The position numbers and the translations under genes were made by a program. Of a stretch of 43,538 bases of DNA, positions 3,588-43,391 are shown piece by piece. The first letter of the stretch is position 1; every line of letters starts with the position of its first letter. The stretch is from a virus, in the IMG/VR virus record IMGVR_UViG_3300045988_001646, positions 1 through 43,538 of that record; one strand, 5' to 3'. A model generated the notes under the pieces. It was not told the origin of the DNA. It did not search any database and was given only the letters and a program-made list of their open reading frames with translations.

Positions 3588-6500
3588 TTACGGTGCCATC
3601 CACCGGTTTCTAAGTTCTTTCACGGAGTTTACGCCCTGCTCCTGCTTCATAATTGCCTCCACGCCCTGCCGCACGTCCGCCTCCTCATAGCCGTGCGCCA
3701 GCATCTCCCTGTAGATCAGACGCGCCGTTTCGGTGTCCCTTTCTTTCTGCGCCCGGTACAGCAGCTCGCACCACCGTTTCTTGTTTCCAGCGCTCTTATC
3801 CATGCGGTAGATGGCCTTTTCCATCTCAAACATCAGCCGCACATTCCCGGTTTCGCTGGCAATAGTCCGAGCCAAAGACCACACATCACGGCCTGCATTT
3901 GCTACGCTGATGCCGAATACTTTACTAACAGAAGCAATCACCTGTTTCGCGCTGTACGCCATCGTCTTTTGGCCCTCGCCGTTAGCGCTGGCGATCATGG
4001 CTCTGGTCGCTTTTATGATGTCATCAATTACGCTGGCATCCATGCGGTCCACGGTGTAGCCCTGTAGTAACGAGATAATGTCTTTCCCAAAAGGAACACG
4101 CCCTAACAGTGTAATATTCCCTTTTAGGTTTCCTTCCAACGCTATGTTCGTGGTAAGTTCCCAACCATCTTTCTCATCACCGGTCACACCAGTAAAGGCT
4201 TCCAGAACGCGCTCTAAGTATTTTTTCTTCTTGTCGTCGTCCCGCAGGCCGTCCACGATGGACTGTGCCAGCGCGTTCACCACGTCCGTCACCAGCAGGG
4301 CGCCTACGGCCCGCTTCAGCTGCTTCAGCGCCTTGCTACGCTTCTGCGGGTTCGTTTCATACACCCATGCGTCGTAGGAACGCATCAGGATATTCAGGCT
4401 TTTCAGCGGCTCACCCATGAAGGACGTGGCCTGCCTAAATAGCATATCTCCATCCCGCATGATCTGCGTCCGCTGCATAATGCCGTCCACCACCTGCGTC
4501 TGGTCGATCACGTCCGTAAACACCTCCGCCACCTGCTGATAGTAAGCATCGCTGCCAACCTCCAGGCTTGTGTTTGCCGCCACCTGCCATTCGCAAGCGT
4601 TCCAGATCTTGCCCCACGTCATCGCATCGGCCTTCCCGGCCAGTGACATACTCTTGTCGCTCAGCCACGTCATAAAGCTGCCGTCCGTGCCGTATACCTC
4701 CCGTGCAATGGTGTACCGGCTGCCCTGGTCAAAGCCGGACGTGTCCTTGATGCCCGCAATGGGCGCCCACTTTCGTGCCTTGTCCCATCCGTTGCCTTTG
4801 GTCACGCCGTTGCCCAGGCCCTTCACCATGTTTTCCGGGTCCAGCACCACTGCCGCCCGGAAGTACGCCGTGGGCTGCTGGATGACCACGCGCCAATTCG
4901 CGCCAACAGCCGCACCCTTGTAACTCCCAACATACTTTTCAACCACTCTTGCAGTGGCCAATCCGCTTTTTTTCTGGCCGTTCTGCACGTCCCGCATCAG
5001 GTTCTGCCAATACTTCTGCGCCGCGTCGCCGTACACACTTGACAGCACCTGCCGCACGTTCTTCCCGGTCAGATTGCCCATGCTGTCCCGGTACCGGTAG
5101 TTGTACAGCCGGTTAATGTCCTCCATCGGGGCCAGCAGCGTGGCGTACTTGATCATGTCGCTGGCGTTCTGCGCAAACACGTCGTACACGCCGCCGATGT
5201 CCAGCGCGTTGCTGGCGTTGGGCGTCAGGGCCTTTGCGCTGCCCATATTCTTGATCTCTCTGGCGATGTCCGGTCCCTTCTCCACGCTGGATGCCGTGGC
5301 CTCCTTCGCCGTCTTGATGGGCCAGTAATGCGTTTCCATGAACTTGCGGTAGCCGTACACCGCCATGCTGGCCTCGTTGCCCCACTCCGCCAGTTTCGTG
5401 CTGGCCAGCTTCTGCAACCCGTCTGCCACCTTGATCTGCTCCGGTGTCAGCACAGAGGTGATGGCCTTGACGTCCTCCAGCGTCAGCAGAATGTTCTCCG
5501 TCCCGCGGGGGATGGCTTTCAGCTTGCCGTCCCGCTTGATCTCCGGCTGCACGATGCCGCCCACCATCAGGTGGTTCATGGCCTGCTCACCGCGCTTTGC
5601 CAGGTTGTACATGTTCATAATCTGCTCGTTGGTCAGCGTCAGCTCCACGCCACGGCTTGTGGTGAACGTGTGCCGTTCAAAGCGGTTTTTGTACACGTCC
5701 GCATCCAGGAACTTTTTAGCCGCGTCCCGCAGCTCCGTCAGCATCACGTGCTCCCGGTCCTGCGCGTTCCGCAGCGTCCGGTATACCTGCATGCCGCCGT
5801 CGCCGTAGGCGGAGAAGAACGTATACGGGTCCGCCATATCCAGCGAGATCTTCCGGTTCCGCCGCTTCCGGCTCATGCTGCCCATCATAAGGCTGTCCGC
5901 CCACTCGCTGGTCCGTGCGTACTTCTGGTTCGCCAGCGTCCGGTCGTAGCTGGTCAGCGTGGCCTCGATGGCCCGCACCGCGTTCCATACGGTCTCCAAC
6001 TCCGTTACGTTCATGTCGGCAATGCGTTTGTCTCCCAGTTTGGAAAGAGATGCCAACAGCCCGCCGCCCTCCGTCAATGCAGGGTCAACGACCATATCAT
6101 CATCGCGGTCGATTATGTCCTCGTACAGACGTCTTAATTTTCCCGCCTGCATTGTCCGCTTCGTCGGGTCGCCGTCGGCGTTTTTCCGCAGCCGCCCGTT
6201 CTCGTCGTAGCTGTATGCGCTCTCCAGGTTGATGTTCCGCAGCAGATCGGCCACCACCACGCGCAGCTCCTCCGGGATGTGCTTTTTGTCCGTGGGGTGC
6301 AGCAGCTTTTCGGACAAAGGCCCCGTGTGTCTGGCGATCTTGGCACGCATCTCCGCGGCGTACCGCTTCTCCCGGCCCTTCTGTGTCTTTTCGCTGTACT
6401 CTCGGCGCATCCGCTTCACCATGTCCCGGCGCTTTTCCCGCTCCTTTGTCAGCATTTCACGCACCCGGCCCACGGCCTCCTGCTTCTCCAGCTCCCGCCG

Positions 6501-9500
6501 GTCGGCAAAGGTCTTCTTCTGCCGCACCTGGTCAGAGATCATGCCGTCAATGATGTCGTTGGCGATCTCCTGAATGGCTGCGTCACGGTAGCTGTCAAAG
6601 GGGTTTTCATAGATGCTGTCCATGCTGTCCAGCACATCCGCGATCTGCTGCAGCTTGTCCGCCTCGGTATACACGTCGCTGGGGAAATAGCCCTCGCCGA
6701 ACATCTCCGTCATTTCCTCGTACATGGTGTCCACCGGCAAGCCCTCCGACTTGTTCAGCTTCAGCGTTCCCATGTACCGCTTGCGGAACTCGTTGTAGTG
6801 GTCCATCTCCCCGTTGAAAAGGATCTTCTGCCGCTTCAGGTAGTCTTTGATCTCCAGCAGCTCCGCGCCGTGCTCCGTCAGCTCCGTCGTGTTGTCCACG
6901 ATGGCCGTCGCCGCATTTCTGGCGTAGGGCATCAGGTCGGCCATGCTCACGTCTTTCTTCATCACAGCCTTGCCCAGCGCCTCCATGTCGGCCTGAATGT
7001 CGCCGTATTCCACGTCGCTGCCGTACTTGCGTATGGCCTCGCGCCCCAGCTTTTTCACGTCCCGCAGCACTACGGACGGCTCCTTGCTGATGCGCATTTC
7101 GCCCTTCAGCTCCTGCACCCGCTGCTCCAATGCGCGGTTGCGGCTGGCCAGTACCGTGCGCTCCCGTTTCAGGTCCCGCACCTCCTGTTCAATGTCCGCC
7201 GTACTCCGCAGCTGAAATCTGGCTCCCTCTACGCTGTTCACGGCATCCAGTCTGGCTTTTTCATCTCCGCTGGCATATTCGATCATCAGCACACCGGCGT
7301 TTTCCAGTGCTGCCTTTACCTCTGCGCTGGCGTCGTTAGGGATGACCGCCGCCAACACTTCATCAAAACCTACGGCTCTCTGCGGCTTTGCCTCGAAATA
7401 CCCGGTCGGCATATTGGAAATGTCTTCATACAGCTGCAGCACCTTTTCCGCCGTATCCGGTTTGATTTGCAGCGTGGGGTATGTCCGCAGCTCTTTATCA
7501 ATTCCCGCCACAGTCCGTTTTGTACGCATCGTCTCTACAATAGCCGACGCCGCATCGTCCGATGCGATAAACTCATTTCTTGCCGCAGGATCCTTGATCT
7601 CGTTGGTCAACTCCGCAAGGCGTTCAGAATACTTCTGCCGGATAGCGCTGTATTCTTCCTCGGTCATTTTCTGAAGCCGCCCGGAGTCGGCCTTGATCTC
7701 GTCAATAGAGCCGTAATCCTTTGACGCAACACCCCAAATCGCCTGGCCACCAAAGAATGTGTTGGCACCCTTCTGATCGCCTTGCTTCATCGCCTTAACA
7801 ATGTTTTCCAGCGTGATATCATAGTGCGTTGCCGAAAAACTCCTGCGATTGCCGGAAGATGTATAGTAGTCCTTACCGTTGTAAATGCCCTCGTTTTTTA
7901 CAACACCGTCAAACAGATTATCCAGCCATTGCTCGTACTCCTTCTGATTTACCTTGTCGCGGATAGCTTTGTTGGTAGCGTCCCTGTCCACTTCTTCCGT
8001 CACAGTTTCCGTGTTACCGGCCAGATATTTCCGCGTATCCAACATATACCGCATCTTTGCCTCAAAGGTTTCTGCGTTTACCACATCGGCCGCATCCTTT
8101 GCAGGCAGCCCCAGCTTTTCGTAGTATTTTTGCAGTGCGGCGTTCAGCGCTTCGCCGTGTTCCTTGTACCACAGTTTTCTTGCCGCAATAGGCGACTCGC
8201 CGCCCTTTGCGCGAAAATCGTTTACAGTGCTCTCCCCCAATTCGCGGATCAGGAACGATGCCATTTCCTGCTGGTTGTCGCCCATGCGTGTGACTTCGCG
8301 CTTCATTACGTTTTCTACCGCACCCCGCCCGGTATCTTCCAGATAAATGTTCATCACGCGCGGGTCGTCGCGCATAGCTCCGACAACTTTATCTACGCCG
8401 CCCTTCCGGTTCAGCTCGTCCTCCAGCGTGTTTGCCGCAGAATATAAGGGGTCTGCAAAGCTCCTGCCTTTCGACCGCTCCATACGGTAAAACAGGTCGT
8501 GGATTTTCTTGGCGAATTTCTCATTTACCTCATATTCAATTCGCGGGGCAGTAGGTGTCCATGCGTCGTAACCGTACACCTTGTTGCTGCGGAACAGCTG
8601 CGGGTCGATGGTATCCTTGCTGAACACAAACGAAATGTCGCCGTACTCGCCGTGGCCTTCGTCTGCCTTTACGATGGCAATACTCGGCATAGGAAGCCCG
8701 CCAAGCTTTGCGGCATCCAGCAGGTTCTTCTCTGTCAGGTTATGCAGCGCCAGCAGGTTTTTTGTTTCCTCCACAGGCGCTTTCAGCGAAAATTGCGGCT
8801 TGACATTCTCGCCATCGGCGGGTATACTGTTCTTAGACGTAGAAGCCGTGGGCTGTGTGAGCGCGTCCGTACTGGATGTGGCCGCAGTCGGTCCGGTTTC
8901 TGCGTTTGTTTTTTCCGCAAATGTAAACGCAGAACCATCCGGCATAACAATGCGGTGCATATCGTAATGGTTTTTGCTGGTCTCTCTTACTACGACCGCC
9001 ATATTCCCCCGCACCCCGTTTATAACAACAGGCGCTGCGAAAGTAACTGTGCTATATCCACGCCCCTTATGGTCAGCCTCGCGGTAAATTTCTTTTCCGC
9101 GCTTGAGCACATAAGGTAGGGCCGCAAACGCCGCGATTTCTCCGTCGCTCTGCAGATAATTAAGCGCGCTGTTTACATCTTTGCGGCTTACTTCAATTTC
9201 TCCATATCCCTGCCTGTCTACGCGGTTTCCGTATTTCAGCGCTTCCTTTTCCGCCCACGCCCGTTTCTGCTTAATATTCATTTCACTGAAAATTTCAGAA
9301 ACGTTCTTTTGCACTACCGGCTCCGTATCATTCAGCGTTTTACTGGCGTTGGCGATCTGCTGTTTGATGCTGACAACTGTTTTATCGGAAGTGTTTTTCA
9401 GGCTGTATTTTACACCGTCGCCCTCACCGGCGGCGGTTTTTGCTTTCTCCGCCTGCCGCTCCGCCGCGTCAAAGGCCGCCTGCCACTTCTGCGCAATGTC

Positions 9501-11792
9501 CTCCAGCTCTCCGAAGGTCTTGCCGTAGGCATCCATCGCCGCGTTGTCTCTTGCCTTGCCGGTGAACATAGCCTTGACTTTGGCAAGAAATTCCTTCAGC
9601 CCGTCCAGCAGCTTCTGCGCCGCCGTGCGGTTGTCCTTGGCAAACTGTGCGAACAGATCCGTGTCCTCGATCATCCGCCCCGCGAAATCCGCGGCGATCT
9701 CGTCCATCACCTCGTCCTGCGTCAGCGTTACGCCGGCTCTCTCCGCCGCCTCCATGTACCGCTGCACGACCTCCGTTTCCGTGTCCGCGCCGTTCTCCCG
9801 CATGCGGTACTCTATCGCCGCCTGCCGGAACGCCAGGTACTCGTCGGGGGATAGGTCCTGCATCCGGTGGGTGACCTCATGCCCCGCCACCTCATAGATG
9901 GGGTTTGTGCTGTCCGCCGCGATCTGGATCAGGTTTTTCTCCCTGATGTACTGGCCGTTGGCCTGCCCATCCATAATGCTGTCCACGAACTCGATACGCA
10001 CGCCCAGCTTCTTGCCGATGGTGTTCAGCGCCGATGCCGCGCCCTTGTCTTTGGCGATGATGTACCGGCTGTAGGCATTGTCCGCCAGCCCGGCTCCCGC
10101 CGTGGTAGTCACTGCGGACACGTCCGCATTTTCCCGTGCCACCTGCGCTCTTGCGTCCTCCAGCCCCGCGTTGTACGCCGTGTACCGCTGCTCCGGCGTC
10201 AGCATCGCCGCGTACTTGCCCTTGGCCTTTTCCGCCTCAATGCCGTTCAGTCCCGCGTTGTACATGGCGGAGAAGCCTGCGTACACCTCCGCGCCGCTGC
10301 CGCTTGTTTCCCGCACCTGCTGATACGCTCTTTGCCCCGCCTCCATAAAGCCGCCCACGGCTTTCTGTGTGCGTTTCTGCGTCTGGGGGATAGCCGTGGT
10401 ACGCTGTGTCTGCTCCTGCGCTGTCTCGCGGCTTGCAAGGGCAATAATTTCACGTTTAAGCTGGCTGATCGGCTTTTCCGTGTCCAGTTTTACCCCGGTG
10501 CTGGCTTCCAGTGTTTCCACGGCCACCGGGTCCCGTGCAATGGCCGCCGCCTGGTTGCCGGTGATCGTCTCGCCCCTGGTCACCGCCTCCACGGCTTCCG
10601 CCGTCCTGCCGTCCATCTCCGGCGCGGTGTTCTTCCGCACATCCCGGTCATACTTCGTTCTGGCCGCGTTGTATGCTGCGCGGTTGGCAAGGGTGTTCAC
10701 GCCCATCTGCCCGCCGCCCAGAATACCGCCAACTACAGCGCCGCCGGCAAATTCCTCCGCCGCTGCCGCCGGGTCGAAAATGGCGCCGTTGCCGATACCG
10801 ACAAGGGGGTTGTCCCGTCCATAGACGGCGTTCTGCGTGGCGCGTTCGATCACGCCCTGCACCACTTCCTCCTTGCCCTCGTCCAGCATGGTGTCCACCC
10901 ATGCTTTCCATGCGCTGCCGCCGTTCTGCAATTCCCGGGGCAGCGTCTGGATACCGCCGCCCACTTCCACGGCGGCGTTCATAAGTCCGTTGCCGATGGC
11001 GTACACGGATGCGCGGAAATCGTCCGCGCCGTCCGCTTTTGCTTGCTCATAGCCGGGGCCAAATACTTGTGCAAAGGAGAGCTGGAAGTTCGGGTCTTTC
11101 GCCATTGCTCGCATACTGCGGGAAATGGTGTTGACCAACCCGGAGGAAGCCGCCGCGTTTTCCGCCAGTGAGCCTGCCTGTGCCGCCGTGCTGGCGCCGC
11201 CGGTCAACAGCGCCGCAATGGCTTGCGGCACCGCCGCCACCGTCGCCGCACCCAGGTCTTCGAAAACCTGCGCCGCTTTCCCGCCGCGTGCCGTGTTTTC
11301 CGCGTACCGCTGCTGCACGCCCTGCGCCTCCGCGTCAATAGCCCGGTTCCAGCGGTTGAAAAGCCAGTTGCTGGTGTCCGGGTCCCAGTAGCCGTTGGAG
11401 CCCTCCCGGGCAAAATCACCCAGCAGGTTCTCTATCCATGCGCCGGCGGAGCTGCCCACTTTGGCGATCTGTGTCAGGCCCATTTGTCCGGCCTTTGCCA
11501 GCCCCTGCCCAACGTTATATTTCCCCGCCGCACTTGTTGTGTTCCCCGCAGGCACGCTCGGCGTAACCAGCATAGACGTGTCCGGCTTATAGGTGCTGGG
11601 CGCTACATCCGCCGCCGTTCTGCCGCCGGTGCGGATAATGTCGCCGCCCATGCCGGCATCTTCCATTTTGCTGCGAAACTTATCCTGCCACCCACCGCTG
11701 TCTGCATTGCGGTTTGTCCGGCTTGCTGCGGGGATGTCGTTTTCCATCCCCGCAGCTTTCATTTTCTTCTGAAATGTCTGCTTCCAGCCCAT
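3588..11792 (-). CDS. Giant virion-associated polyvalent-type protein with a zincin (HExxH) metallopeptidase motif
   Basis: 2734-aa uninterrupted ORF with an AAGGAGG RBS. Gly/Ala-rich hydrophobic N-terminal region. HEVTH at aa 638-642 (nt 9867-9881). Several distinct globular and coiled-coil segments. Positioned among virion genes. Confidence 0.85.
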   Translation of the reverse strand: MGWKQTFQKKMKAAGMENDIPAASRTNRNADSGGWQDKFRSKMEDAGMGGDIIRTGGRTAADVAPSTYKPDTSMLVTPSVPAGNTTSAAGKYNVGQGLAKAGQMGLTQIAKVGSSAGAWIENLLGDFAREGSNGYWDPDTSNWLFNRWNRAIDAEAQGVQQRYAENTARGGKAAQVFEDLGAATVAAVPQAIAALLTGGASTAAQAGSLAENAAASSGLVNTISRSMRAMAKDPNFQLSFAQVFGPGYEQAKADGADDFRASVYAIGNGLMNAAVEVGGGIQTLPRELQNGGSAWKAWVDTMLDEGKEEVVQGVIERATQNAVYGRDNPLVGIGNGAIFDPAAAAEEFAGGAVVGGILGGGQMGVNTLANRAAYNAARTKYDRDVRKNTAPEMDGRTAEAVEAVTRGETITGNQAAAIARDPVAVETLEASTGVKLDTEKPISQLKREIIALASRETAQEQTQRTTAIPQTQKRTQKAVGGFMEAGQRAYQQVRETSGSGAEVYAGFSAMYNAGLNGIEAEKAKGKYAAMLTPEQRYTAYNAGLEDARAQVARENADVSAVTTTAGAGLADNAYSRYIIAKDKGAASALNTIGKKLGVRIEFVDSIMDGQANGQYIREKNLIQIAADSTNPIYEVAGHEVTHRMQDLSPDEYLAFRQAAIEYRMRENGADTETEVVQRYMEAAERAGVTLTQDEVMDEIAADFAGRMIEDTDLFAQFAKDNRTAAQKLLDGLKEFLAKVKAMFTGKARDNAAMDAYGKTFGELEDIAQKWQAAFDAAERQAEKAKTAAGEGDGVKYSLKNTSDKTVVSIKQQIANASKTLNDTEPVVQKNVSEIFSEMNIKQKRAWAEKEALKYGNRVDRQGYGEIEVSRKDVNSALNYLQSDGEIAAFAALPYVLKRGKEIYREADHKGRGYSTVTFAAPVVINGVRGNMAVVVRETSKNHYDMHRIVMPDGSAFTFAEKTNAETGPTAATSSTDALTQPTASTSKNSIPADGENVKPQFSLKAPVEETKNLLALHNLTEKNLLDAAKLGGLPMPSIAIVKADEGHGEYGDISFVFSKDTIDPQLFRSNKVYGYDAWTPTAPRIEYEVNEKFAKKIHDLFYRMERSKGRSFADPLYSAANTLEDELNRKGGVDKVVGAMRDDPRVMNIYLEDTGRGAVENVMKREVTRMGDNQQEMASFLIRELGESTVNDFRAKGGESPIAARKLWYKEHGEALNAALQKYYEKLGLPAKDAADVVNAETFEAKMRYMLDTRKYLAGNTETVTEEVDRDATNKAIRDKVNQKEYEQWLDNLFDGVVKNEGIYNGKDYYTSSGNRRSFSATHYDITLENIVKAMKQGDQKGANTFFGGQAIWGVASKDYGSIDEIKADSGRLQKMTEEEYSAIRQKYSERLAELTNEIKDPAARNEFIASDDAASAIVETMRTKRTVAGIDKELRTYPTLQIKPDTAEKVLQLYEDISNMPTGYFEAKPQRAVGFDEVLAAVIPNDASAEVKAALENAGVLMIEYASGDEKARLDAVNSVEGARFQLRSTADIEQEVRDLKRERTVLASRNRALEQRVQELKGEMRISKEPSVVLRDVKKLGREAIRKYGSDVEYGDIQADMEALGKAVMKKDVSMADLMPYARNAATAIVDNTTELTEHGAELLEIKDYLKRQKILFNGEMDHYNEFRKRYMGTLKLNKSEGLPVDTMYEEMTEMFGEGYFPSDVYTEADKLQQIADVLDSMDSIYENPFDSYRDAAIQEIANDIIDGMISDQVRQKKTFADRRELEKQEAVGRVREMLTKEREKRRDMVKRMRREYSEKTQKGREKRYAAEMRAKIARHTGPLSEKLLHPTDKKHIPEELRVVVADLLRNINLESAYSYDENGRLRKNADGDPTKRTMQAGKLRRLYEDIIDRDDDMVVDPALTEGGGLLASLSKLGDKRIADMNVTELETVWNAVRAIEATLTSYDRTLANQKYARTSEWADSLMMGSMSRKRRNRKISLDMADPYTFFSAYGDGGMQVYRTLRNAQDREHVMLTELRDAAKKFLDADVYKNRFERHTFTTSRGVELTLTNEQIMNMYNLAKRGEQAMNHLMVGGIVQPEIKRDGKLKAIPRGTENILLTLEDVKAITSVLTPEQIKVADGLQKLASTKLAEWGNEASMAVYGYRKFMETHYWPIKTAKEATASSVEKGPDIAREIKNMGSAKALTPNASNALDIGGVYDVFAQNASDMIKYATLLAPMEDINRLYNYRYRDSMGNLTGKNVRQVLSSVYGDAAQKYWQNLMRDVQNGQKKSGLATARVVEKYVGSYKGAAVGANWRVVIQQPTAYFRAAVVLDPENMVKGLGNGVTKGNGWDKARKWAPIAGIKDTSGFDQGSRYTIAREVYGTDGSFMTWLSDKSMSLAGKADAMTWGKIWNACEWQVAANTSLEVGSDAYYQQVAEVFTDVIDQTQVVDGIMQRTQIMRDGDMLFRQATSFMGEPLKSLNILMRSYDAWVYETNPQKRSKALKQLKRAVGALLVTDVVNALAQSIVDGLRDDDKKKKYLERVLEAFTGVTGDEKDGWELTTNIALEGNLKGNITLLGRVPFGKDIISLLQGYTVDRMDASVIDDIIKATRAMIASANGEGQKTMAYSAKQVIASVSKVFGISVANAGRDVWSLARTIASETGNVRLMFEMEKAIYRMDKSAGNKKRWCELLYRAQKERDTETARLIYREMLAHGYEEADVRQGVEAIMKQEQGVNSVKELRNRWMAP

Positions 11793-16343: not shown

Positions 16344-17573
16344 TCAACTGCTTCGTGCTGGGCTATGACAAGCGCCTGCTTCTGGCAGATGTCCAATAGC
16401 TCGCCGGCAATTTCCGCCAGGCGCTCCACCAGCTCCTGTGAGTGCACTCGTCCATCCCTCCTTGTCTGGCCAAAAGCCGAATGTCTCCCGGAAAATCCGT
16501 GCCGACGCGCAAATGGCTCGGCGGCTGTTTCCCCTTGACATATGCCCAAAGTAGGCCGCCCATACAGGCCGCACATCCGCGAGAGTCATCTTCCCCGTCT
16601 CCACCATCCGTTGCAGCTTCGGCAGCTTTTTCCTAAATCGTACAGTGGCATCTCTCCCCATGCGCATTTTCACGCCGCCGCTCGGCCTTGTGTGGTAGCG
16701 GCACTTCAAAAACACGGATTTCTCCACAGGGGATATGCCGGTTTTCCCCTCATTGAGCCGTAGGCCGATTTGCTCCGTCGCCGCCCGGATTTTCTCCAGG
16801 CACATTTGCAGGTAAGGCAGCTCATCGTGCATGGCGTAGCCGTCATCGTTGTACCTCCCGTAGCCCTTCAGCCGCAGCTTGTCCCGGCACAGGTGGTCGA
16901 TAGGTGATGCCAGCAGCAGGGCGCATATCTGCGATACTTGGCTTCCCAGCCCCAGCCCCGCCGGGCCAAAATCCCGGATGAAGCGGTTTACTTCCTCGGC
17001 AATACGCTGGTCATGGAATAGCCGGCGGTTGGCTTCAAAAATCGGCGCATGAGGCGCGGTATCGAAAAATTTTCTGAAGTCATACCGCAGCACATACCCA
17101 CCCCGTCTTGCCTGCCGGGAAACCTGTTGTTTATAGCGCCGCATGGCAAAGTCCATGCCCTTGCCGCTCAAAGATGCCGAATTGTCGTAAACGAAGGTCG
17201 CTCGGTAGATCGGCGTCAAGACGAAGTCGCAAAGGCACTTTTGTACCACCCGTTCCGTGATATGCACCGCCCGGATGCGCCTCGCCTTGCCTCGCTCATG
17301 CACCGTAAACTCGTGAAATCCGCGATGCTTGAAGGTCCCGGCTAAAATATCCGTATGTATGTCCGCCACCCTTGTCAGCATATTATCCATCAAATTTTGG
17401 GTGCTGGCTTTCCACCGTACACCTCGGCAGCACTTCTTTGCGGATTTCCACAGGTGTAGAAAACTGAATACCTCCTCGAAATTGCCACAAGCGCGGCTCC
17501 GTTCGCTGGTTCTTTTCTCTCTTTCGGCCCTCCGGCGCTGATACCGCGCCTCCCGCCGCTCCTCGTTGCTCAT
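16344..17573 (-). CDS. DGR reverse transcriptase
   Basis: 409 aa. GGAGG RBS. RT motifs include LGSQVSQ (DGR-type [LIV]GxxxSQ) and YNDD. Sits downstream of the TR. Confidence 0.9.
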   Translation of the reverse strand: MSNEERREARYQRRRAEREKRTSERSRACGNFEEVFSFLHLWKSAKKCCRGVRWKASTQNLMDNMLTRVADIHTDILAGTFKHRGFHEFTVHERGKARRIRAVHITERVVQKCLCDFVLTPIYRATFVYDNSASLSGKGMDFAMRRYKQQVSRQARRGGYVLRYDFRKFFDTAPHAPIFEANRRLFHDQRIAEEVNRFIRDFGPAGLGLGSQVSQICALLLASPIDHLCRDKLRLKGYGRYNDDGYAMHDELPYLQMCLEKIRAATEQIGLRLNEGKTGISPVEKSVFLKCRYHTRPSGGVKMRMGRDATVRFRKKLPKLQRMVETGKMTLADVRPVWAAYFGHMSRGNSRRAICASARIFRETFGFWPDKEGWTSALTGAGGAPGGNCRRAIGHLPEAGACHSPARSS

Positions 17574-17776
17574 TTTTGCGCCTCCGTACAGTCTTATTGT
17601 CGGGTGCGGGTTCTAACTGCGTAGTCGCCGCCATGCAACCGGGTACCGCACATCCCCGGCCATGCACACAAGCGTCCGGCGGCGAGGCATCGGCGGCGAG
17701 TTTAACGGGTCAGGCGCTCCTTCGCTCAAGGCGTCGTTTTCAGCAAACCTGCTTACTAAGTCCTACCTAAGGTAGA

Positions 17777-23345: not shown

Positions 23346-23443
23346 ATCTTGTCCTCCTAAAAATGCGCGGGCATGTCGCTCCCGTGTGGCGTCCCCGTTC
23401 CTGCGGCGAAGCGGTGTCTCATAACCGCCGCCCCGCCGCCCGG

Positions 23444-23531
23444 AACAAAAGGGAGGTACAGAGTTCGCCTCTGCACCTCCCACGGTACCATTGCTTTTTC
23501 TGAATTTTCCACTTAAAAGTGGAATTTTCAA
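23444..23531 (-). promoter_or_regulatory. Late regulatory module A: TTGAAA box, 18-bp palindrome, then intrinsic terminator
   Basis: On the minus strand: TTGAAA-A-TTCCACTTTTAAGTGGAA-AATT, then 21 nt, then a 13-bp hairpin GGGAGGTGCAGAG/CTCTGTACCTCCC followed by TTTTGTT. Same layout as 28231-28327. Confidence 0.6.
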
Positions 23532-23806
23532 AATTTTACAGAAATTTTTTTCGGCGCCGCCTTTTCCAGCTGCAAAAAGCCGATCTTCAGCAGGTCATAC
23601 AGCCATTCTCCGCCGTGCCAGCGCAGGTACGCATCCCCGCTGTCCAGCTTTTCATACACCAGTTCCGCCTCCTGCGTGTTGTGCAGCCACCCCGCCGCCG
23701 TGTACATGAGGCAGCTTACCGCCGCACACACGTCCGGTGCGCCCGTGGCGTGTCCCCTGCACCTGACGGAGCAGCTGTCCCCGCGGTGCAGCGTTACCTC
23801 TGTCAT
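23528..23806 (-). CDS. prp: Prp-like cysteine protease (ribosomal-processing cysteine protease family)
   Basis: 92 aa. GHATGAPDVCAAVS carries the His/Cys dyad typical of Prp. ATGA overlap with the portal stop. Confidence 0.75.
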   Translation of the reverse strand: MTEVTLHRGDSCSVRCRGHATGAPDVCAAVSCLMYTAAGWLHNTQEAELVYEKLDSGDAYLRWHGGEWLYDLLKIGFLQLEKAAPKKISVKF

Positions 23807-25747: not shown

Positions 25748-27190
25748 TTAATACACTTGATAAAATGCGTACCGGCTGGGCCTGTACTCGTCCTCTGTCT
25801 CCAGCGGGGAATACGGCCGCTCCACCGTCCTGTATTCCTCCCGCGGCCCTATGGGATTGCGCATGCACACATACCGCAGCTGGTCATAGATGTGGTCCTC
25901 GCCGTCGGTGTCGATGTCCTCCACGTCCGTCTGGTCATAGACCAGGTTCGGCACCGTCCGTATAAAATGCTTGCAGGTGCTGAACACATACAGCATGGGC
26001 ACTCCATCCTCGTCAAAGGCCAGCCGGTGATGCACCTGCATCTTGCCGTTGATCCGCGCGTGGTCACCCTTCTCGAAGTACACCCGCTGCCGCTCCATCA
26101 GCGCGCCCACGCTCTCCGTGCCGTCGCTCTGCCAGATGGCCGGATCTCCCACCCGGTGTATCTGCTTCCCCTTCAGGTTGGGATCCTCGTCCTCGATCCT
26201 CCGTATCTCCTGCGCCACCTTTGTTGGCTCCCACATCACGCCCCGGTTTGGTGTTCCCGTGCAGCCGTATAGCTCCCGTATATGGTACATCCGCCTGTTG
26301 CGGTCCACGGCGTACCACCCCACGGAAAAGGGCCGGGAATAGCCCCAGTCCAGTCCGCACCAGATCACCCAGTCCTCCGGCACCCGGAACGGCGCGATCA
26401 CGTGGGTGTTCTTCCGGTCCATATAGTGCTCGCTGTCGTTGCGCCACTCCGTGAACACCTGTCCCTCGAAGCTGTCCCAGTTGCCGTACAGCAGGGCGTT
26501 CCGCTCCGCCTCCGGCATGCTGGCCAGCCGCTGGACGTACATGGGGTCGTTTTCCATCAGTATCTTGTTGTCAAATACCGAGGACGGCACGAAGATCCGC
26601 TTCTGCTGCCCTATGTGCCTCCTGCCGTCCGGCGTGTACCACGCGGCCTCCTCCGTGATGGTCTGCATCGGCGCCGCCGCCGTGATGAAGCGCTCCTTCA
26701 CCCACCCGTGGCCTACGCCGCCGGGGTTGGCCGTGGAGCGCATATACACCCGCGTCCCCGGTCCGTTAGGCCGGTTTCGGGATTTCAGGTATTCGTATTC
26801 CTCCTGCGTAAAGTGCGTCAGCTCGTCAAAGGCGATAAAGTCATAGGCCTGCCCCTGGTACTGTATCTTGTCCTGCGGCCGGTTCATGCTGCCGAACACG
26901 ATCTGCGCCCCGGAGGGAAACCGCCATGTGTGGCTGCTGCCGTTGTACCTGGCCTTTGGGTATACCCGTGGGTAGTAGTTCAGCGTCTTGTCGATCAGCT
27001 CCCGCAGCTGCGGGAACGTCTTTCGCAAGATCAGCGCCTTGTACCAAGGGATATGCACCTGCCGCAGCGCCTCGATGACCAGTGCGTCGCTCTTGCCGCC
27101 GCCGGCCGCACCGCCGTACAGCGCCTCATACTCCGGCCGCGCCATAAATATGGCCTGCCGCTCCTGCGGCCGCCATACCACGCTACTCAT
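25748..27190 (-). CDS. terL: Terminase large subunit
   Basis: 480 aa. Walker A GGAAGGGKS. C-terminal nuclease-type region. Overlaps the terS stop. Confidence 0.9.
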   Translation of the reverse strand: MSSVVWRPQERQAIFMARPEYEALYGGAAGGGKSDALVIEALRQVHIPWYKALILRKTFPQLRELIDKTLNYYPRVYPKARYNGSSHTWRFPSGAQIVFGSMNRPQDKIQYQGQAYDFIAFDELTHFTQEEYEYLKSRNRPNGPGTRVYMRSTANPGGVGHGWVKERFITAAAPMQTITEEAAWYTPDGRRHIGQQKRIFVPSSVFDNKILMENDPMYVQRLASMPEAERNALLYGNWDSFEGQVFTEWRNDSEHYMDRKNTHVIAPFRVPEDWVIWCGLDWGYSRPFSVGWYAVDRNRRMYHIRELYGCTGTPNRGVMWEPTKVAQEIRRIEDEDPNLKGKQIHRVGDPAIWQSDGTESVGALMERQRVYFEKGDHARINGKMQVHHRLAFDEDGVPMLYVFSTCKHFIRTVPNLVYDQTDVEDIDTDGEDHIYDQLRYVCMRNPIGPREEYRTVERPYSPLETEDEYRPSRYAFYQVY

Positions 27191-27581
27191 CCCTGACCTC
27201 CGGCATCAGCACCACGCCGCTCTCGCCATTGTCCGATGCCTTGTTCATCATGGTCCACTTGTCGATCAGCGTACCTATCGCCGTGGTGATCTGGCTGGGC
27301 GTGGCCTCCGCCAGCTTTGCCGGGTCATTCAGCACCGCCAGCCCATTTCCGATGATCTGGCACACCACATCCCGCTGGCTCTCCATATACGCCAGAATGT
27401 CTGCCGTGTTCTGTGCTTTTTTCTCCGCGGCTTTTTGTTCAAAGTCGTCGCTTGCTTCAACAACGCGCTTTACCGTGGTAGGGTTTACGTTGTTTTTCCT
27501 TGCCGTGGCGCGATAGCTGCCGCTTTCCAGATAATCCGCCAGTATTTTCTTTTTCTGCCGGTCTGTCAGTCTCGCAGCCAT
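27183..27581 (-). CDS. terS: Terminase small subunit (HTH-containing)
   Basis: 132 aa from the ATG at 27581 (GAGGTGA RBS). N-terminal HTH (SYRATARKNNVNPTTVKR). Lies directly upstream of terL. Confidence 0.75.
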   Translation of the reverse strand: MAARLTDRQKKKILADYLESGSYRATARKNNVNPTTVKRVVEASDDFEQKAAEKKAQNTADILAYMESQRDVVCQIIGNGLAVLNDPAKLAEATPSQITTAIGTLIDKWTMMNKASDNGESGVVLMPEVRDE

Positions 27582-28098
27582 GTTATCACCTCGTTTTGTC
27601 TGACGCACCGGCCTCCCACCACTGGCCTTTGTCGTTGGCACGTCTGTACCCGGCTTTCGCCTCACCTAATATGTTCCCGCCGTGAGCTATGTGCCCCGCA
27701 AGCATACATAGCATCCACCACGGCGAAATCCTTTGCAGTAAGCAGACTATTTGAGACGCATCCCATACAGCGGTCTGCCAGCGCATCGCCTGTTGTTTTA
27801 CACAATCGGTCGGGTACCACCACGCATCAATACTATCCTACACAGCGGCTTTGTCCTAAGACAACCGCCACCACACCACATCCACGCCTCGGATTTCTCT
27901 CAAACACGGTGGTACCCAAACCAACCACGGAACTTTTCAGCCCTGCGCCGGTACGTCGGTCGCATCCGTTCATCTTTACAAAGCCGGTGCCAGCCAATAC
28001 ATAAATTACTTCGTCCTGCCGCTTTCGTACAGCGCACAGGAAAGACCACTTTCGCAGGCTTACGCTCCGTGCGGCTGCGAGGCAAGAGGTCACGCCTA
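27582..28098 (-). other. 517-nt ORF-free segment (candidate large structured RNA and/or pac region)
   Basis: No credible ORF on either strand in an otherwise tightly packed genome. CCACCAC occurs at 27616, 27715, 27817 and 27868. A 10-bp inverted repeat GGGTACCACC (27812-27821) / GGTGGTACCC (27909-27918) is present. Confidence 0.5.
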
Positions 28099-28177
28099 TG
28101 GTGCAGACAGCAAGATTTGAACTTGCGAACCCGAAAATTCTTCATATCGGAGCTGTATCCACCCAGCTTCTGCCTGC
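28099..28177 (-). tRNA. Non-canonical tRNA, probable anticodon GAA (Phe-like), with an aberrant anticodon arm
   Basis: 7-bp acceptor GCAGGCA/TGTCTGC. D-arm AGCT(G)...(C)AGCT with GG in the loop. T-arm GCAAG-TTCAAAT-CTTGC. Encoded ACCA. The anticodon region CCGATATGAAGAATTTTCGG needs either a 3-U bulge or an 8-nt loop. U8 is absent. Confidence 0.6.
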
Positions 28178-28191
28178 ATATTGCTCCCTCC

Positions 28192-28213
28192 GGGCGGAGC
28201 CGAAGCCCCGCCC
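28192..28213 (-). promoter_or_regulatory. UUCG-capped GC hairpin 5' of the tRNA
   Basis: On the minus strand: GGGCGGGGC-TTCG-GCTCCGCCC (9 bp, one G-U), 15 nt upstream of the tRNA 5' end. Confidence 0.5.
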
Positions 28214-28230
28214 ATCAGGAAAAGAAGGGG

Positions 28231-28327
28231 GAAAAGAAAAAAAGAATGGAGATGCAGAGTTTGCCCCTGCATCTCCCATGATAAAATGCGTTTTTTCAAT
28301 TTTTCCACTTTTAAGTGGAATTTTCAA
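28231..28327 (-). promoter_or_regulatory. Late regulatory module B: TTGAAA box, 18-bp palindrome, TGn-AAAAAT, then intrinsic terminator
   Basis: On the minus strand: TTGAAA-A-TTCCACTTAAAAGTGGAA-AAAT, then 21 nt, then a 12-bp hairpin GGAGATGCAGGG/CTCTGCATCTCC followed by ATTCTTTTTTTCTTTT. Confidence 0.6.
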
Positions 28328-28330
28328 AAT

Positions 28331-28564
28331 TTATTTTTCGGAAATATCTACTACGCAGGGATAGTCCGTCCTGCCCATCAGATAATCCACCGACACACCA
28401 AATTCATCCGCTATGCTCTTCAGCGCATCCATCGTCGGCTTCGCCGTCCCCAGCTCATACCGCCGTATGGCATCCGAATTCAGCCCGCAGCGCTCCGACA
28501 GCACATACCGCTTCAGTCTCTTTTTCTCCCGCAGCTTTCTCAGCCGTTCCGGGAATTCGCTCAT
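28331..28564 (-). CDS. XRE-family HTH protein (last early gene, abuts late module B)
   Basis: 77 aa. GGAGGAGG RBS. Classic HTH_3 sequence (LRKLREKKRLKRYVLSERCGLNSDAIRRYELG). Confidence 0.8.
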   Translation of the reverse strand: MSEFPERLRKLREKKRLKRYVLSERCGLNSDAIRRYELGTAKPTMDALKSIADEFGVSVDYLMGRTDYPCVVDISEK

Positions 28565-28565
28565 G

Positions 28566-28862
28566 TCAGCACCTCCTCCCCAATGCGGTCATGATCTTCT
28601 TGTCCACCTCCGTCAGCGTAACCAACGCTTCTTTTAGGTCATACTCCATCGGCGGAGGGCCTGGCAGGTCGCACTGTATAATATCCTCCGGGAAGAACGT
28701 CTCCCGCACCCCGCCGCACTCCGCCACGATGTACCGCCCCTTCGGATGCACATACACCACCGTGCCCTTGCGGATAGGGAATTTCTTTTCTTCGCACCCC
28801 TTACCGGGGAATAAGTCTGGCAGCGTCATAAACCTCGCCCGGATCGTGTCACCCTTTTGCAT
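28566..28862 (-). CDS. Hypothetical protein
   Basis: 98 aa from the ATG at 28862 (AAAGGA RBS). The longer ORF extends to 28916. Confidence 0.5.
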   Translation of the reverse strand: MQKGDTIRARFMTLPDLFPGKGCEEKKFPIRKGTVVYVHPKGRYIVAECGGVRETFFPEDIIQCDLPGPPPMEYDLKEALVTLTEVDKKIMTALGRRC

Positions 28863-29094
28863 CTGCCCCGTCCTTTCGTTCGCCGTAGGAGCAGAAATCG
28901 TCATACCCGCTGGCAACCATCCGGCAAGCGTATGTTTTGAACTTCAGACAGTCCTTGCACCGCACCACGACCTCTGCGTCTACGGTGGGCGCCGCGCTCA
29001 CAATGGGCAAAGCAATCTCGTCTCTATCTGCATTATCAAACCACGGCTCGTTATCAAGCCGTTCCCATAGATCGTCGCCATCAATCAGCCGCAT
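28849..29094 (-). CDS. MRLIDGD-family small protein (paralogue 1)
   Basis: 81 aa starting MRLIDGDDL. Shares PTVDAEVVVRCKDC with 29382-29639. Its start overlaps the upstream stop (ATGCGGCTGATTGA). Confidence 0.65.
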   Translation of the reverse strand: MRLIDGDDLWERLDNEPWFDNADRDEIALPIVSAAPTVDAEVVVRCKDCLKFKTYACRMVASGYDDFCSYGERKDGADAKG

Positions 29095-38865: not shown

Positions 38866-39071
38866 TCCTCCACCGTCCTTTCCGCGATCCATGTGTCCAG
38901 CTGCTTCTTGAAGATCTGGAACACAGGGCTTCGCTCCATCTCGATCACGATCCCAAAGGGATACACACCCTGCCGGATGCCCTGCCGCAGCGTATCCGGC
39001 GATATGCTCAACCCACGATCCCGCAGGTACTGCGCCGCGTCCTGCGGCGTCAGCGTCGCGATCCTGCTCAT
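38862..39071 (-). CDS. Excisionase/HTH_17-like DNA-binding protein
   Basis: 69 aa from the ATG at 39071. MSRIATLTPQDAAQYLRDRGLSISPDTLRQGIRQG. Confidence 0.6.
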   Translation of the reverse strand: MSRIATLTPQDAAQYLRDRGLSISPDTLRQGIRQGVYPFGIVIEMERSPVFQIFKKQLDTWIAERTVEE

Positions 39072-39262
39072 TTCTTTCTCCTCTCGATAATGGCATCCAG
39101 CGCGTTCTCCATCCGCTTCTGGATGTCTTTCGGCTTCTTTACGCCGTTCAGGATCTGGCACACATACGCCTTTCCGACCCCCAGCTCCGCGCCCAGGTCG
39201 GAATAGGTGATGCGGTTGTTGTGCATCCTCCCAATCAGTCGTCCCGTCCATGCTTCCGGCAT
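39068..39262 (-). CDS. Cro-like HTH protein (first gene of the leftward early operon)
   Basis: 64 aa. AAAGGAGAAAAG RBS. ITYSDLGAELGVGKAYVCQILNG. Confidence 0.7.
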   Translation of the reverse strand: MPEAWTGRLIGRMHNNRITYSDLGAELGVGKAYVCQILNGVKKPKDIQKRMENALDAIIERRKK

Positions 39263-41589: not shown

Positions 41590-42186
41590 ATGGAAGATAC
41601 GTTAAAGGAATTGTGCCGCGAAGCAAGGGACCGCCAGAATATCACCATTCAGGACCTGGCAGACGAAACCGGAATTTCCATATCCACCATCGGAAACTTT
41701 TTTGCTTCCAAATCCAAAGCGCCCAACGTCTATAATGCCGGCGCCATCTGCGCCGCCCTCGGCGTGTCTCTTGATGAATACTTTGGGATAGAGCCGGTCA
41801 TAACTACAGAAGATGAATTGACGCATGCCAACGACCAATTAAAGCATCAGAAGCAGCTTCATGACGCGGACGTTCGCATAGCTCACCTTGAGGGCAGCAT
41901 GGAGCAGATGACGAAAACCATTGAATACCAGCGCAAGAAATCGCGGGACACAAAATTTGCTATTTATGGCCTTACGTTTTTGTGCGCCATGTTTATGGCT
42001 GTTATCGTGGGATATATCTTTTTTGACTACCGCGTCCCTAACCTGGGGCTTATTCAGGGCGGGCAGGCCGGTGTATTCGCATGGATCGTTTTTTTGCTGC
42101 TTGCCGCCGGCATCGGCATTTTTGCCTCCGTTTTTGTAATGTACTTGCGTTACGCAAAAAAGCACACGCCAAACCTCGACGTATAA
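41590..42186 (+). CDS. Membrane-tethered XRE HTH regulator
   Basis: 198 aa. N-terminal HTH (ITIQDLADETGISISTIGNF), a coiled coil and two C-terminal TM segments. Confidence 0.75.
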   Translation: MEDTLKELCREARDRQNITIQDLADETGISISTIGNFFASKSKAPNVYNAGAICAALGVSLDEYFGIEPVITTEDELTHANDQLKHQKQLHDADVRIAHLEGSMEQMTKTIEYQRKKSRDTKFAIYGLTFLCAMFMAVIVGYIFFDYRVPNLGLIQGGQAGVFAWIVFLLLAAGIGIFASVFVMYLRYAKKHTPNLDV

Positions 42187-42287: not shown

Positions 42288-43391
42288 ATGTCCACTTGTA
42301 TAAAATGCGGCGTCGAGATTGTCCCCGGCGCCGTTTACTGTCACATCTGCGGGAAAAAGCAGGTCAAAGAAACCCGCAAATCCCTGAAGCGCCCCAACGG
42401 AGCCGGCACAGTCTATAAACTCTCCGGCCGCCGTACACGCCCCTGGGCCGCTGCCAAAAATCATGTGATCATCGGCTATTACGAACGGAAAACCGACGCG
42501 CTGGCTGCGCTGGAAAAGCTTTCCGGCAAACCGATCGAAGAAAAATTCAACATGACGTTCTCTGAGGTGTTTGCGGAATGGAAAGCAGAACACTTCCGCG
42601 AAATAGGTCCGAAGGGGATAGAAGCCTACGACATTTCCTATAAGGCCTGCGCCAGTCTCCACGGCAAGAAATTCCGCGACCTGCGTACAAAGGATTTTCA
42701 GGCGATTATCGACAGCAACATGGCCAAGTCTAACTCAACGCTGTCCAAGTACAAGCAGCTCATGACGCAGATGTCCCGCTGGGCCGTCCGTGAGGAGATC
42801 GCCACCACCGATTTTGCCAAATACGTCAAGCTCCCCCAGCAGGTCAAAAAAGAAAAAGCCATCTTTACGGATGACGAGATCGCGCTGTTGGAAAAAGACG
42901 GCTCCGATGCTGCCAAAATTGCCCTCATGCTGCTTTACACCGGTATGCGCATCGGCGAATTGTTTTCCCTGCCGCTGGTGGACTACCACGAGACGTATGT
43001 CATCGGAGGAGAAAAGACAAAAGCCGGTAGAGACCGCGTCATCCCAATACGTCCGGAGGGCAGGAAGTATTTTTCCTACTTTGCCGACCGGGCCGACGGC
43101 GATCTGCTATTGTCCGGCTACGACGGGCAGCGCATCCCCGCCAATTACCGCAAACGTGACTTTTACCCTCTGCTGGAAAAGCTCGGCATCCCAAAGCACA
43201 CGCCCCACGCCACGCGCCACACCTACGCAACATGGGCAAGAAGCGTAGGCATACAGCCGGAAATTTTGCAGAAGATCATCGGCCACGCGAGCTTCTCCAC
43301 CACCGCCAACATCTATGTCCACGCCGACGCAGAAAAACTAATATCAGAGGTGGAACGTGTTAGCAATTTGTCAGTAACCGAAAAAAACTAA
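42288..43391 (+). CDS. int: Tyrosine recombinase / phage integrase with an N-terminal Zn ribbon
   Basis: 367 aa. CIKCG...CHICG. Catalytic-domain motifs TGMRIGEL, HATRHTYATWA and IIGHASFSTTANIYVH. Confidence 0.92.
   Translation: MSTCIKCGVEIVPGAVYCHICGKKQVKETRKSLKRPNGAGTVYKLSGRRTRPWAAAKNHVIIGYYERKTDALAALEKLSGKPIEEKFNMTFSEVFAEWKAEHFREIGPKGIEAYDISYKACASLHGKKFRDLRTKDFQAIIDSNMAKSNSTLSKYKQLMTQMSRWAVREEIATTDFAKYVKLPQQVKKEKAIFTDDEIALLEKDGSDAAKIALMLLYTGMRIGELFSLPLVDYHETYVIGGEKTKAGRDRVIPIRPEGRKYFSYFADRADGDLLLSGYDGQRIPANYRKRDFYPLLEKLGIPKHTPHATRHTYATWARSVGIQPEILQKIIGHASFSTTANIYVHADAEKLISEVERVSNLSVTEKN

Follow-up and report, generated by a model that had tools for sequence, protein, structure and literature searches.

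Where, and by what means, does a phage pass from its early genes to its packaging genes? The question is raised by a short stretch of IMG/VR virus record IMGVR_UViG_3300045988_001646, of which all 43,538 nt were analysed (the window). This stretch, module B, lies between a 77-amino-acid (aa) XRE/HTH_3 helix-turn-helix (HTH) gene and the leader that precedes terS and terL. An original prediction, read from the letters alone, had described it as the second copy of a late regulatory module (the other being module A) and as the boundary between early and late transcription. Judging from sequence comparison, we consider it reasonably probable (about 0.6) that module B is an activator-dependent late promoter of the late transcriptional regulator (Ltr) or class II type, equipped with its own regulator gene, operator, promoter and terminator.

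With few exceptions the genes of the window are encoded on the minus strand, and the module is accordingly read 5' to 3' on that strand (the gene strand). It is present exactly twice in the window, as copy B (28231-28330) and copy A (23441-23536), both on the minus strand, and it is conserved across more than 110 contigs of related phages. As a direct repeat, the two copies extend over 93 nt with 77% identity (23444-23536 versus 28240-28332), and a search of an 11-kb region found no larger repeat family. With up to three mismatches allowed, the pattern TTCCACTTNNAAGTGGAA matches the window only at 23507-23524 and 28303-28320, where 0.14 matches would be expected by chance, and none of 100 shuffled controls contained two or more matches. 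The second copy predicted at 28231-28327 is confirmed by this repeat and by the paired dyads. The XRE gene had been placed just upstream, and it is found there: its TAA stop codon occupies 28333-28331, and 28327, the module start, is 3 nt past it. Each copy runs in the same order, from an A/T-rich flank through the dyad TTCCACTT-NN-AAGTGGAA, a 19-nt spacer and a -10 hexamer to a GC-rich hairpin and a U-run (Table 1). The flank, ATTTTGAAAA, appears to resemble an UP element; small length changes among relatives fall only upstream of it.

Particular alleles of the HTH gene go with particular dyads. In all 112 loci with the T1 allele, the dyad follows within 90 nt downstream (at most two mismatches to the pattern), while the T5 allele, 46% identical to T1 in alignment, is followed by TTGCCCC-N6-GGGGCAA in 78/78 loci. 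No crossed case of allele and dyad was found between T1 and T5. The half-sites of the T5 dyad are changed in only 2 of the 78 loci, and its central six bases and the adjacent spacer are variable. Further HTH alleles carry further dyads, which track changes in the recognition helix. Wherever a locus spans the positions of both copies (slots B and A) and has dyad A, the HTH gene and dyad B are there as well; the two loci with only dyad A are truncated ahead of slot B. An allele-specific DNA determinant thus appears to lie just 3' of the HTH gene, and it is predicted to be bound by the protein. A second T5-type dyad, sought in the T5 loci, was dismissed, as the near-matches fall inside CPxCG zinc-ribbon coding sequence.

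The geometry of the module is nearly constant. We compared 12 modules, namely copies B and A of the window, the T5 module and nine others. The distance from the dyad centre to the first base of an nAnnnT hexamer is 28 bp in 10 modules and 29 bp in the other 2, although the spacers of the more divergent alleles are unrelated in sequence. All 12 hexamers have the form nAnnnT, TGn stands directly before the hexamer in 8/12, and the GC-rich hairpin begins 0-3 nt past it in 12/12. With a start ~7 nt past the hexamer, the dyad centre would come to ~-40.5, the position of a class II activator. The dyad would then overlap the -35 region, and its distance from the -10 hexamer and the predicted start would be fixed, as for the activator site of class II promoters.

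The hexamer itself can be traced through a lineage comparison of 80 IMG/VR relatives. Those with a terL at least 94% identical have the same dyad at both slots, B and A. Many relatives of ~91% identity (T2 type) have, at both of these slots, the box AAAAATTTTTCGTTT[G/T]AGGGGTGCG where the window has the dyad; the -10 is retained and stands 18-19 nt further on, as TATGCT in slot B and as TATGAT in slot A. T2 slot B is homologous to the window from the hexamer onward. Distant relatives (terL 55-78% identical) have an ancestral-type motif, TTnCGGGGyGmAA-N14/15-TGnTAyGCT, with 34 matches on the gene strand versus 0 on the opposite strand in 1.8 Mb, and nearly all matches lie ~0.5-0.7 kb upstream of terL or ~3.8-4.0 kb downstream of the terL start. 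At these ancestral-type promoters a conserved leader begins 5 nt past the hexamer. Leaders past the hexamer are homologous between the window and divergent relatives, and the 3' arm of hairpin A aligns with the ancestral leader start. Since a strand-specific motif stands at the same slots and the leaders are homologous, TATCAT and TGgTACCGT occupy the (extended) -10 position. The T2/ancestral box is absent from the window, where the -35-side box of the ancestral motif has given way to the dyad. The hexamer is also well kept: copy B reads TAT[C/G]AT in 46/46 distinct variants and copy A TGnTAC[C/T]GT in 15/15. As a separate observation, the ancestral-type motif typically occurs twice per locus in L059-L112.

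These comparisons bear on an alternative that the original prediction had raised, in which the locus was likened to the antiterminator position of lambdoid phages and TATCAT was proposed as a sigma-dependent pause element. Polymerase from an upstream sigma-A promoter (TTGAAA-17-TGgAAAAAT, with the dyad in its spacer) or from the early operon would pause at the -10-like TATCAT, and the DNA-bound HTH protein or another protein would modify it to pass the hairpin terminator, as lambda Q does at pR'/tR'. The locus does share features with lambda Q/pR'/tR' and its counterparts in phages 82 and 21: a regulator gene at the end of the early operon, at the place of the Q gene itself, a site upstream of a -10-like element, a strong terminator within ~50 nt downstream of the loading site, and late genes beyond. 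Q-loading complexes likewise have a factor that sits ~28 bp upstream of a -10-like element, and the dyad-to-hexamer distance by itself would suit either reading. The promoter scan around the dyad returned TTGAAA-17-AAAAAT in copy B and TTGAAA-16-GAAAAT in copy A. However, this upstream sigma-A-like promoter was rejected as a functional one, as its hexamers are not conserved. The upstream -10 candidate loses its essential final (-7) T, giving AAAAAC, in 6 of the 15 natural copy-A variants, all of which keep TGnTACYGT, and alleles T5, L324, L329 and L330 are devoid of upstream promoter-like hexamers. Antitermination does not need a hairpin that always begins 0-3 nt past the hexamer, and slot A of the T2 type has its hairpin upstream of the -10. 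Scans of 30 early-region proteins with Pfam, PHROGs or NCBIfam detected no Q-, N-, NusG-, sigma-, ArpU- or RinA-like protein or other antiterminator. The window thus differs from lambda in having no Q-family protein among those scanned and no conserved upstream promoter, in a -10-like element that stands at the true promoter -10 position in relatives, and in a hairpin that abuts the hexamer. Because the upstream hexamers are not conserved, other alleles are without them and no Q/N-like protein was found among the early proteins scanned, we regard antitermination as unlikely, though it is the alternative we would place first. A variant, in which the hairpin is a promoter-proximal terminator of late transcripts and the 77-aa XRE protein, bound 28 bp upstream of the -10-type element, loads onto polymerase and renders it terminator-resistant, as a minimal, DNA-loaded, Q-like antiterminator of unrelated fold, widespread in gut Clostridia phages, seems to us a shade less likely again. 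The lambdoid analogy is therefore not borne out, and the sigma-dependent-pause or Q-like mechanism is probably wrong, since TATCAT occupies the -10 position of a late-promoter motif in divergent relatives.

The hairpins of the two copies are stable, with folding energies of -22.8 (B) and -29.5 (A) kcal/mol and z-scores of -5.6 and -5.9. Pairing holds in 95.3% of cells over 18 distinct T1-type sequences, versus 39-61% when the partners are slid. One pair changes between AU and GC in four sequences, and six pairs change on one side only, through G.U; G.U pairs also occur in the hairpins of other alleles. As these G.U pairs are valid only in the gene-sense RNA, the constraint acts on RNA. A GC-rich stem followed by a U-run on the transcribed strand gives the element the form of an intrinsic terminator, and we would expect it to act as one. 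Its placement is telling for the promoter's own RNA, which would be without most of the 5' arm because the hairpin begins at ~-5. The truncated 8-bp stems that could still form have energies of -10.8 and -12.0 kcal/mol and stand 4-8 nt from the U-run. Directly after the hexamer is expected to be the sole position at which a hairpin stops read-through while sparing RNA that starts at the promoter itself. Slot A of the T2 type, with its hairpin between box and -10, would by the same logic reach the same outcome: read-through would be stopped and the promoter's own transcripts spared. A pac site, a cruciform and a terminator of the opposite strand were considered for the element and rejected, given the second copy after the portal and Prp-like genes, the tracking of dyad with HTH allele, and G.U pairs that fit the gene sense only. 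Between the hairpin and the second GC-rich hairpin of the leader lies a C/U-rich, G-poor tract of ~30 nt (28214-28247, minus strand), and all alleles examined have a comparable one; it may serve as a rut-like site or pair with purine-rich sequence.

Another possibility is that no promoter exists here at all. The hairpins would simply terminate the early operon (B) and the packaging operon (A), the late promoters would lie elsewhere, and the dyad would serve autoregulation, RNA 3'-end stability, or recombination as a linker between modules. The terminators are convincing in themselves, the modules sit at mosaic junctions of sequence exchange among relatives, and the RNA of the dyad can form a 7-bp hairpin. 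On the other hand, we noticed no other promoter candidate between the hairpin and terS, where the leader consists of RNA cassettes in relatives. The -10 hexamer and its distance from the dyad are conserved across alleles with unrelated spacers, and divergent relatives have a gene-strand-specific promoter motif at the same two slots. This evidence makes a module without a promoter improbable.

The HTH gene is the last gene of the leftward early block and begins 1 nt after the preceding gene. In the family scans its product matches only HTH_3, HTH_31 and HTH_19, with no match to the described Ltr families (RinA/LtrC, ArpU, the Sigma70_r4 protein LtrA and the DUF1492 protein LtrB). A profile search collected a family of 88 small HTH_3 proteins of 67-90 aa that are 37-99% identical, and the contigs of 10 of these homologues were looked up. 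In 9/10 the homologue lies 230-690 nt upstream of terS/terL or of the gap leading there, and in 8/10 it stands behind a co-directional early block. One of the nine has oppositely oriented genes before it, and for one of the nine no terminase was found within the 1.5-kb flank; in the tenth look-up the homologue is followed by convergent genes. The phages concerned represent four types of packaging (terminase) genes. A dyad follows the homologue in all nine and differs with the recognition helix. Within the phage lineage, two small proteins take the position directly upstream of slot B, namely the T1 and T5 HTH alleles, and in L038 the same slot holds a 74-aa protein of the Sigma70_r4/HTH_23 type with a dyad of its own, GTTGCA-N8-TGCAAC. 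The early-to-late boundary, seen as a late regulatory element tied to the XRE gene, thus holds up: the homologues are usually the last early gene before terS, and each allele has its own dyad.

Most small XRE proteins repress, and the best named matches of the HTH protein are repressors: phage_RstR, at 64.6 bits (below the cut-off of 80), and the DNA-binding domains of P22 c2 and the 434 repressor. One may therefore ask whether the -10 hexamer and a weak TGGAAA make up a constitutive promoter that the dyad-bound XRE protein represses or delays. The promoter scan scores TGGAAA-18-TATCAT at 9/12, the TGGAAA coming from the right half of the dyad and resembling a -35 element in 4/6 positions. Nevertheless, the HTH gene is co-transcribed with early lytic genes, so that a repressor would increasingly silence genes needed afterwards. 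The T1 type has its 4/6 TGGAAA at 18-bp spacing, whereas T5 has nothing like a -35, and the promoters of such alleles would need activation. The site, at ~-49 to -32, is in a position typical of activators and leaves the -10 and the start free. We therefore hold repression to be about as improbable as a module without a promoter.

We then propose the following model, in which the HTH protein is an activator. The 77-aa XRE-family protein would be made as the last product of the early operon, and its dimer would bind TTCCACTT-NN-AAGTGGAA, centred 28 bp upstream of the -10 and ~-40.5 from the predicted start. From there it would help host sigma-A RNA polymerase to start at a promoter that has a usable TATCAT and no good -35. 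RNA coming from the early operon would be terminated by the GC-rich hairpin and the U-run, and the late genes would consequently not be expressed through read-through. RNA from the late promoter would start within the 5' arm of the hairpin, where only the 8-bp stem, apart from the U-run, is possible; it would therefore continue through the tRNA-like cassette, the leader, terS, terL, the portal gene and the Prp-like gene. At module A the packaging transcript would be stopped and transcription restarted, under the same regulator, for the scaffold and capsid genes and those downstream.

Several observations weigh against this model. The homologue L328 has no module after it, and the HTH protein belongs to none of the described Ltr families. 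L047 keeps the hairpin and lacks the U-run, and termination may accordingly not be the only role of the hairpin. The -35-like TGGAAA would allow basal promoter activity and repression by the HTH protein. In L035 and L046 slot B is of the T1 type and slot A of the T2 type, which means that the HTH regulator is not needed at every late promoter. The hexamers of the 12 modules were chosen by eye, and their 12 geometries are not independent because related modules share descent. Finally, the start site and the direction of regulation are both things that we infer from the letters.

In staphylococcal and other Gram-positive phages, a late regulator gene lies directly upstream of terS, and the regulators do not cross-react (PMC3753634, PMC3152322). 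Experiments on the staphylococcal Ltr systems located a specificity determinant immediately 3' of the regulator gene and showed that a terminator separates this gene from the late transcript (PMC3753634, PMC3152322). The window resembles the Ltr systems (RinA, LtrC, ArpU, LtrA of the Sigma70_r4 family, LtrB of DUF1492) in its small, last-early regulator gene directly upstream of terS. As far as can be read from the sequence, it also shares with them allele-specific regulators, a DNA determinant 3' of the coding sequence, a terminator against read-through, and cassettes of regulator plus site that are swapped between phages. It differs in its protein, which has an XRE/HTH_3 fold, belongs to a family of 67-90 aa and falls outside the described families. 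It has a single dyad at ~-40.5, whereas the described systems have direct repeats or, for RinA, sequences that lie more than 155 bp upstream. For the head genes, a second copy of the site is proposed to drive a transcript of their own. The terminator does not stand between regulator gene and promoter: it comes after the -10 and straddles the predicted start.

Late promoters of Mu have a -10, no typical -35 and a C-protein dyad at -43.5 (PMC2582627). Like those of Mu C, and of Mor at Pm, the promoter proposed here would combine a recognisable -10, a dimeric HTH protein and a dyad that overlaps the -35 region, and it may likewise be without a typical -35; it differs from Mu C in protein family and host, and its dyad centre would be ~3 bp closer to the start. 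Class II activation is also the mode of lambda cI at PRM and of CRP at -41.5. To our knowledge, no embedded terminator has been described for Mu late or class II promoters. Restriction-modification C proteins such as C.AhdI and C.PvuII are ~80-aa XRE-family dimers that bind palindromic boxes over the -35 and activate transcription. They share with the HTH protein the XRE family, a length of ~80 aa and a palindromic box that overlaps the -35 region. They are set apart by autoregulating their own operon, by their paired operators and by a context with neither a phage late region nor a terminator. We would class the module as a variant, of XRE type, of the Ltr/late-promoter arrangement, in which the operator is class-II-like and the terminator overlaps the start; we see in it no new principle.

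If this assignment is correct, an XRE-type family joins the known late transcriptional regulators of Gram-positive phages, one that would be common among uncultivated Clostridia prophages of human and animal guts. [quoted passage not shown] The natural pairs of regulator and operator, which probably do not cross-react, could serve as switches in Clostridia. Two operons would be compactly insulated by a terminator that overlaps the start of its own promoter, and it is tempting to speculate that this start-straddling terminator may be a general, portable insulator that travels with the regulator cassette.

Table 1 Features of modules B and A and of the neighbouring genes in the window.
Feature	Position	Strand	Remarks
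A/T-rich flank ATTTTGAAAA	28321..28330	minus	same in copies A and B; predicted ~-59 to -50
Dyad B, TTCCACTT-AA-AAGTGGAA	28303..28320	minus	predicted HTH-dimer site, centre ~-40.5; 28 bp from -10 hexamer
Spacer, 19 nt	28284..28302	minus	length constant; 3' part variable in sequence among relatives
TATCAT, proposed -10 of late promoter B	28278..28283	minus	position of the T2/ancestral late-promoter -10
Predicted transcription start, late promoter B	28270..28272	minus	placed 6-8 nt past the -10 hexamer
Hairpin B, 12 bp, 7 GC pairs, loop GCAAA	28248..28276	minus	spans ~-5 to +24; one base after TATCAT
U-run B, ATTCTTTTTTTCTTTT (listed also as ATTCTTTTTTT)	28232..28247	minus	directly after hairpin B
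Dyad A, TTCCACTT-TT-AAGTGGAA	23507..23524	minus	predicted second site of the same regulator
Extended -10 TGg TACCGT, proposed late promoter A	23482..23490	minus	after a 19-nt spacer; fits the ancestral TGnTAyGCT form
Hairpin A, 13 bp, 8 GC pairs, loop GCGAA	23451..23481	minus	straddles predicted start at ~23475
U-run A, TTTTGTTCC	23441-23450	minus	after hairpin A
77-aa XRE/HTH_3 gene, proposed late regulator	28331..28564	minus	Pfam HTH_3, E = 7.7e-11; PHROG transcriptional regulator
Conserved 99-aa protein	28566-28865	minus	directly upstream of the HTH gene
Second GC hairpin, UUCG loop	28192..28213	minus	in late leader; -27.7 kcal/mol
tRNA-like cassette with CCA end	28099..28177	minus	first element of late leader; cloverleaf fold
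terS-like gene	27183..27581	minus	first protein-coding gene past module B; weak HTH/terS matches; directly before terL
cro-like gene	39068-39262		heads the leftward early block
CI-like HTH protein	41590-42186		
Integrase	42288-43391		

The window is a temperate phage, most likely a prophage of gut Clostridia. Its early block encodes Gam, Erf, NinB, SSB, RusA and two methyltransferases, then several small proteins of no assigned function, with the HTH gene last. Downstream of module B come, in order, a UUCG-capped hairpin, a tRNA-like element, a non-coding leader, terS, terL (T4-type), the portal gene (P22-type) and a Prp-like peptidase gene. Module A comes after the last of these, ahead of a scaffold-like gene and the major capsid gene. 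Relatives identified by terL are prophages or contigs binned with Oscillospiraceae and other Clostridia (Flavonifractor, Oscillibacter, Lawsonibacter, Evtepia), and the host RNA polymerase therefore most likely uses a Firmicutes-type sigma-A. A search of an annotated phage collection matched only unannotated gut "Bacteriophage sp." records.

The conserved 99-aa protein encoded next to the HTH gene has 188 homologues, all annotated as hypothetical, and no Pfam domain was found in it or in any of them. In relatives where it is detected, it mostly adjoins the late-promoter slot or the HTH gene on the upstream side, and in database entries P0101 and P0112 its C-terminal part is fused to an HTH domain. 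Its AlphaFold model has a predicted local distance difference test (pLDDT) score of 55 and was for that reason not used for a fold search. The protein is a candidate for the factor that reads the T2/ancestral box. Further into the early block, between 28850 and 30200 of the window, pairs of small genes are duplicated in tandem, giving direct repeats of 37-52 nt with 78-95% identity; the duplicates include zinc-ribbon proteins with CPNCGAKMDG-type motifs.

Downstream of module B, the original prediction had listed a UUCG-capped hairpin, a tRNA, a 517-nt segment free of open reading frames, and terS. The hairpin is real, and terS is in place; it is the tRNA that fails. The hairpin recurs, with up to three mismatches, in 52/58 of the first related loci (L001-L058). 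The tRNA-like element scores 24.2 bits on the Rfam tRNA model, below the gathering threshold of 29, and ARAGORN made no tRNA call at 28099-28177. Its fold, with a 4-bp anticodon stem and a 12-nt loop, departs from the 5-bp stem and 7-nt loop of canonical tRNAs. ARAGORN found almost no tRNAs in the window and 38 related loci, and the "tRNA" of the window is for this reason not confirmed. Rfam, applied to the module and leader with gathering and E-value thresholds, returned only this sub-threshold tRNA match and chance matches. The 517-nt segment is not literally free of open reading frames, but it carries no coding signal.

A cassette comparison of the window with L001-L058, L115 and L321-L330 shows that the leader (27582-28230, minus strand) is a mosaic of exchangeable small RNA cassettes, with blocks of the window shared patchily with relatives. 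The same slot in relatives holds Rfam-positive tRNAs, tRNA-Thr and tRNA-Met called by ARAGORN, tRNAs with 2-nt or 4-nt "anticodons", and the 6A RNA motif (RF02925). Tandem repeats of 11 nt, AACGCACGGAG, lie between leader cassettes in relatives, and the shortest leader, in L029, is ~140 nt. Directly before terS, a 5' untranslated region (27590-27665, minus strand; GAGGCGAAAGCCGGG...GGTGCGTCAG) is kept in 8/8 relatives compared, whatever cassettes precede it. At slot A, a short conserved hairpin motif CACGG...CCGCG (CACGGGAGCGACATGCCCGCG in the window; 23366-23386, minus strand) immediately precedes the ribosome-binding site of the scaffold-like gene. This motif is found in the slot A leaders of most relatives, with compensatory changes, and stands in tandem in some (L067, L084).

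Two other features lie further downstream. Between the head genes and the holin/amidase lysis genes, an RT-2 RNA (Rfam RF03077, 111.7 bits) is located directly upstream of an open reading frame for a 409-aa reverse transcriptase (RVT_1), at 16344-17770 on the minus strand. Positions 3588-11792 (minus strand) form a single open reading frame of 2734 aa with LPD3 and PBECR5 (Barnase/EndoU/colicin-like nuclease) domains, which is a phage "polyvalent" protein.

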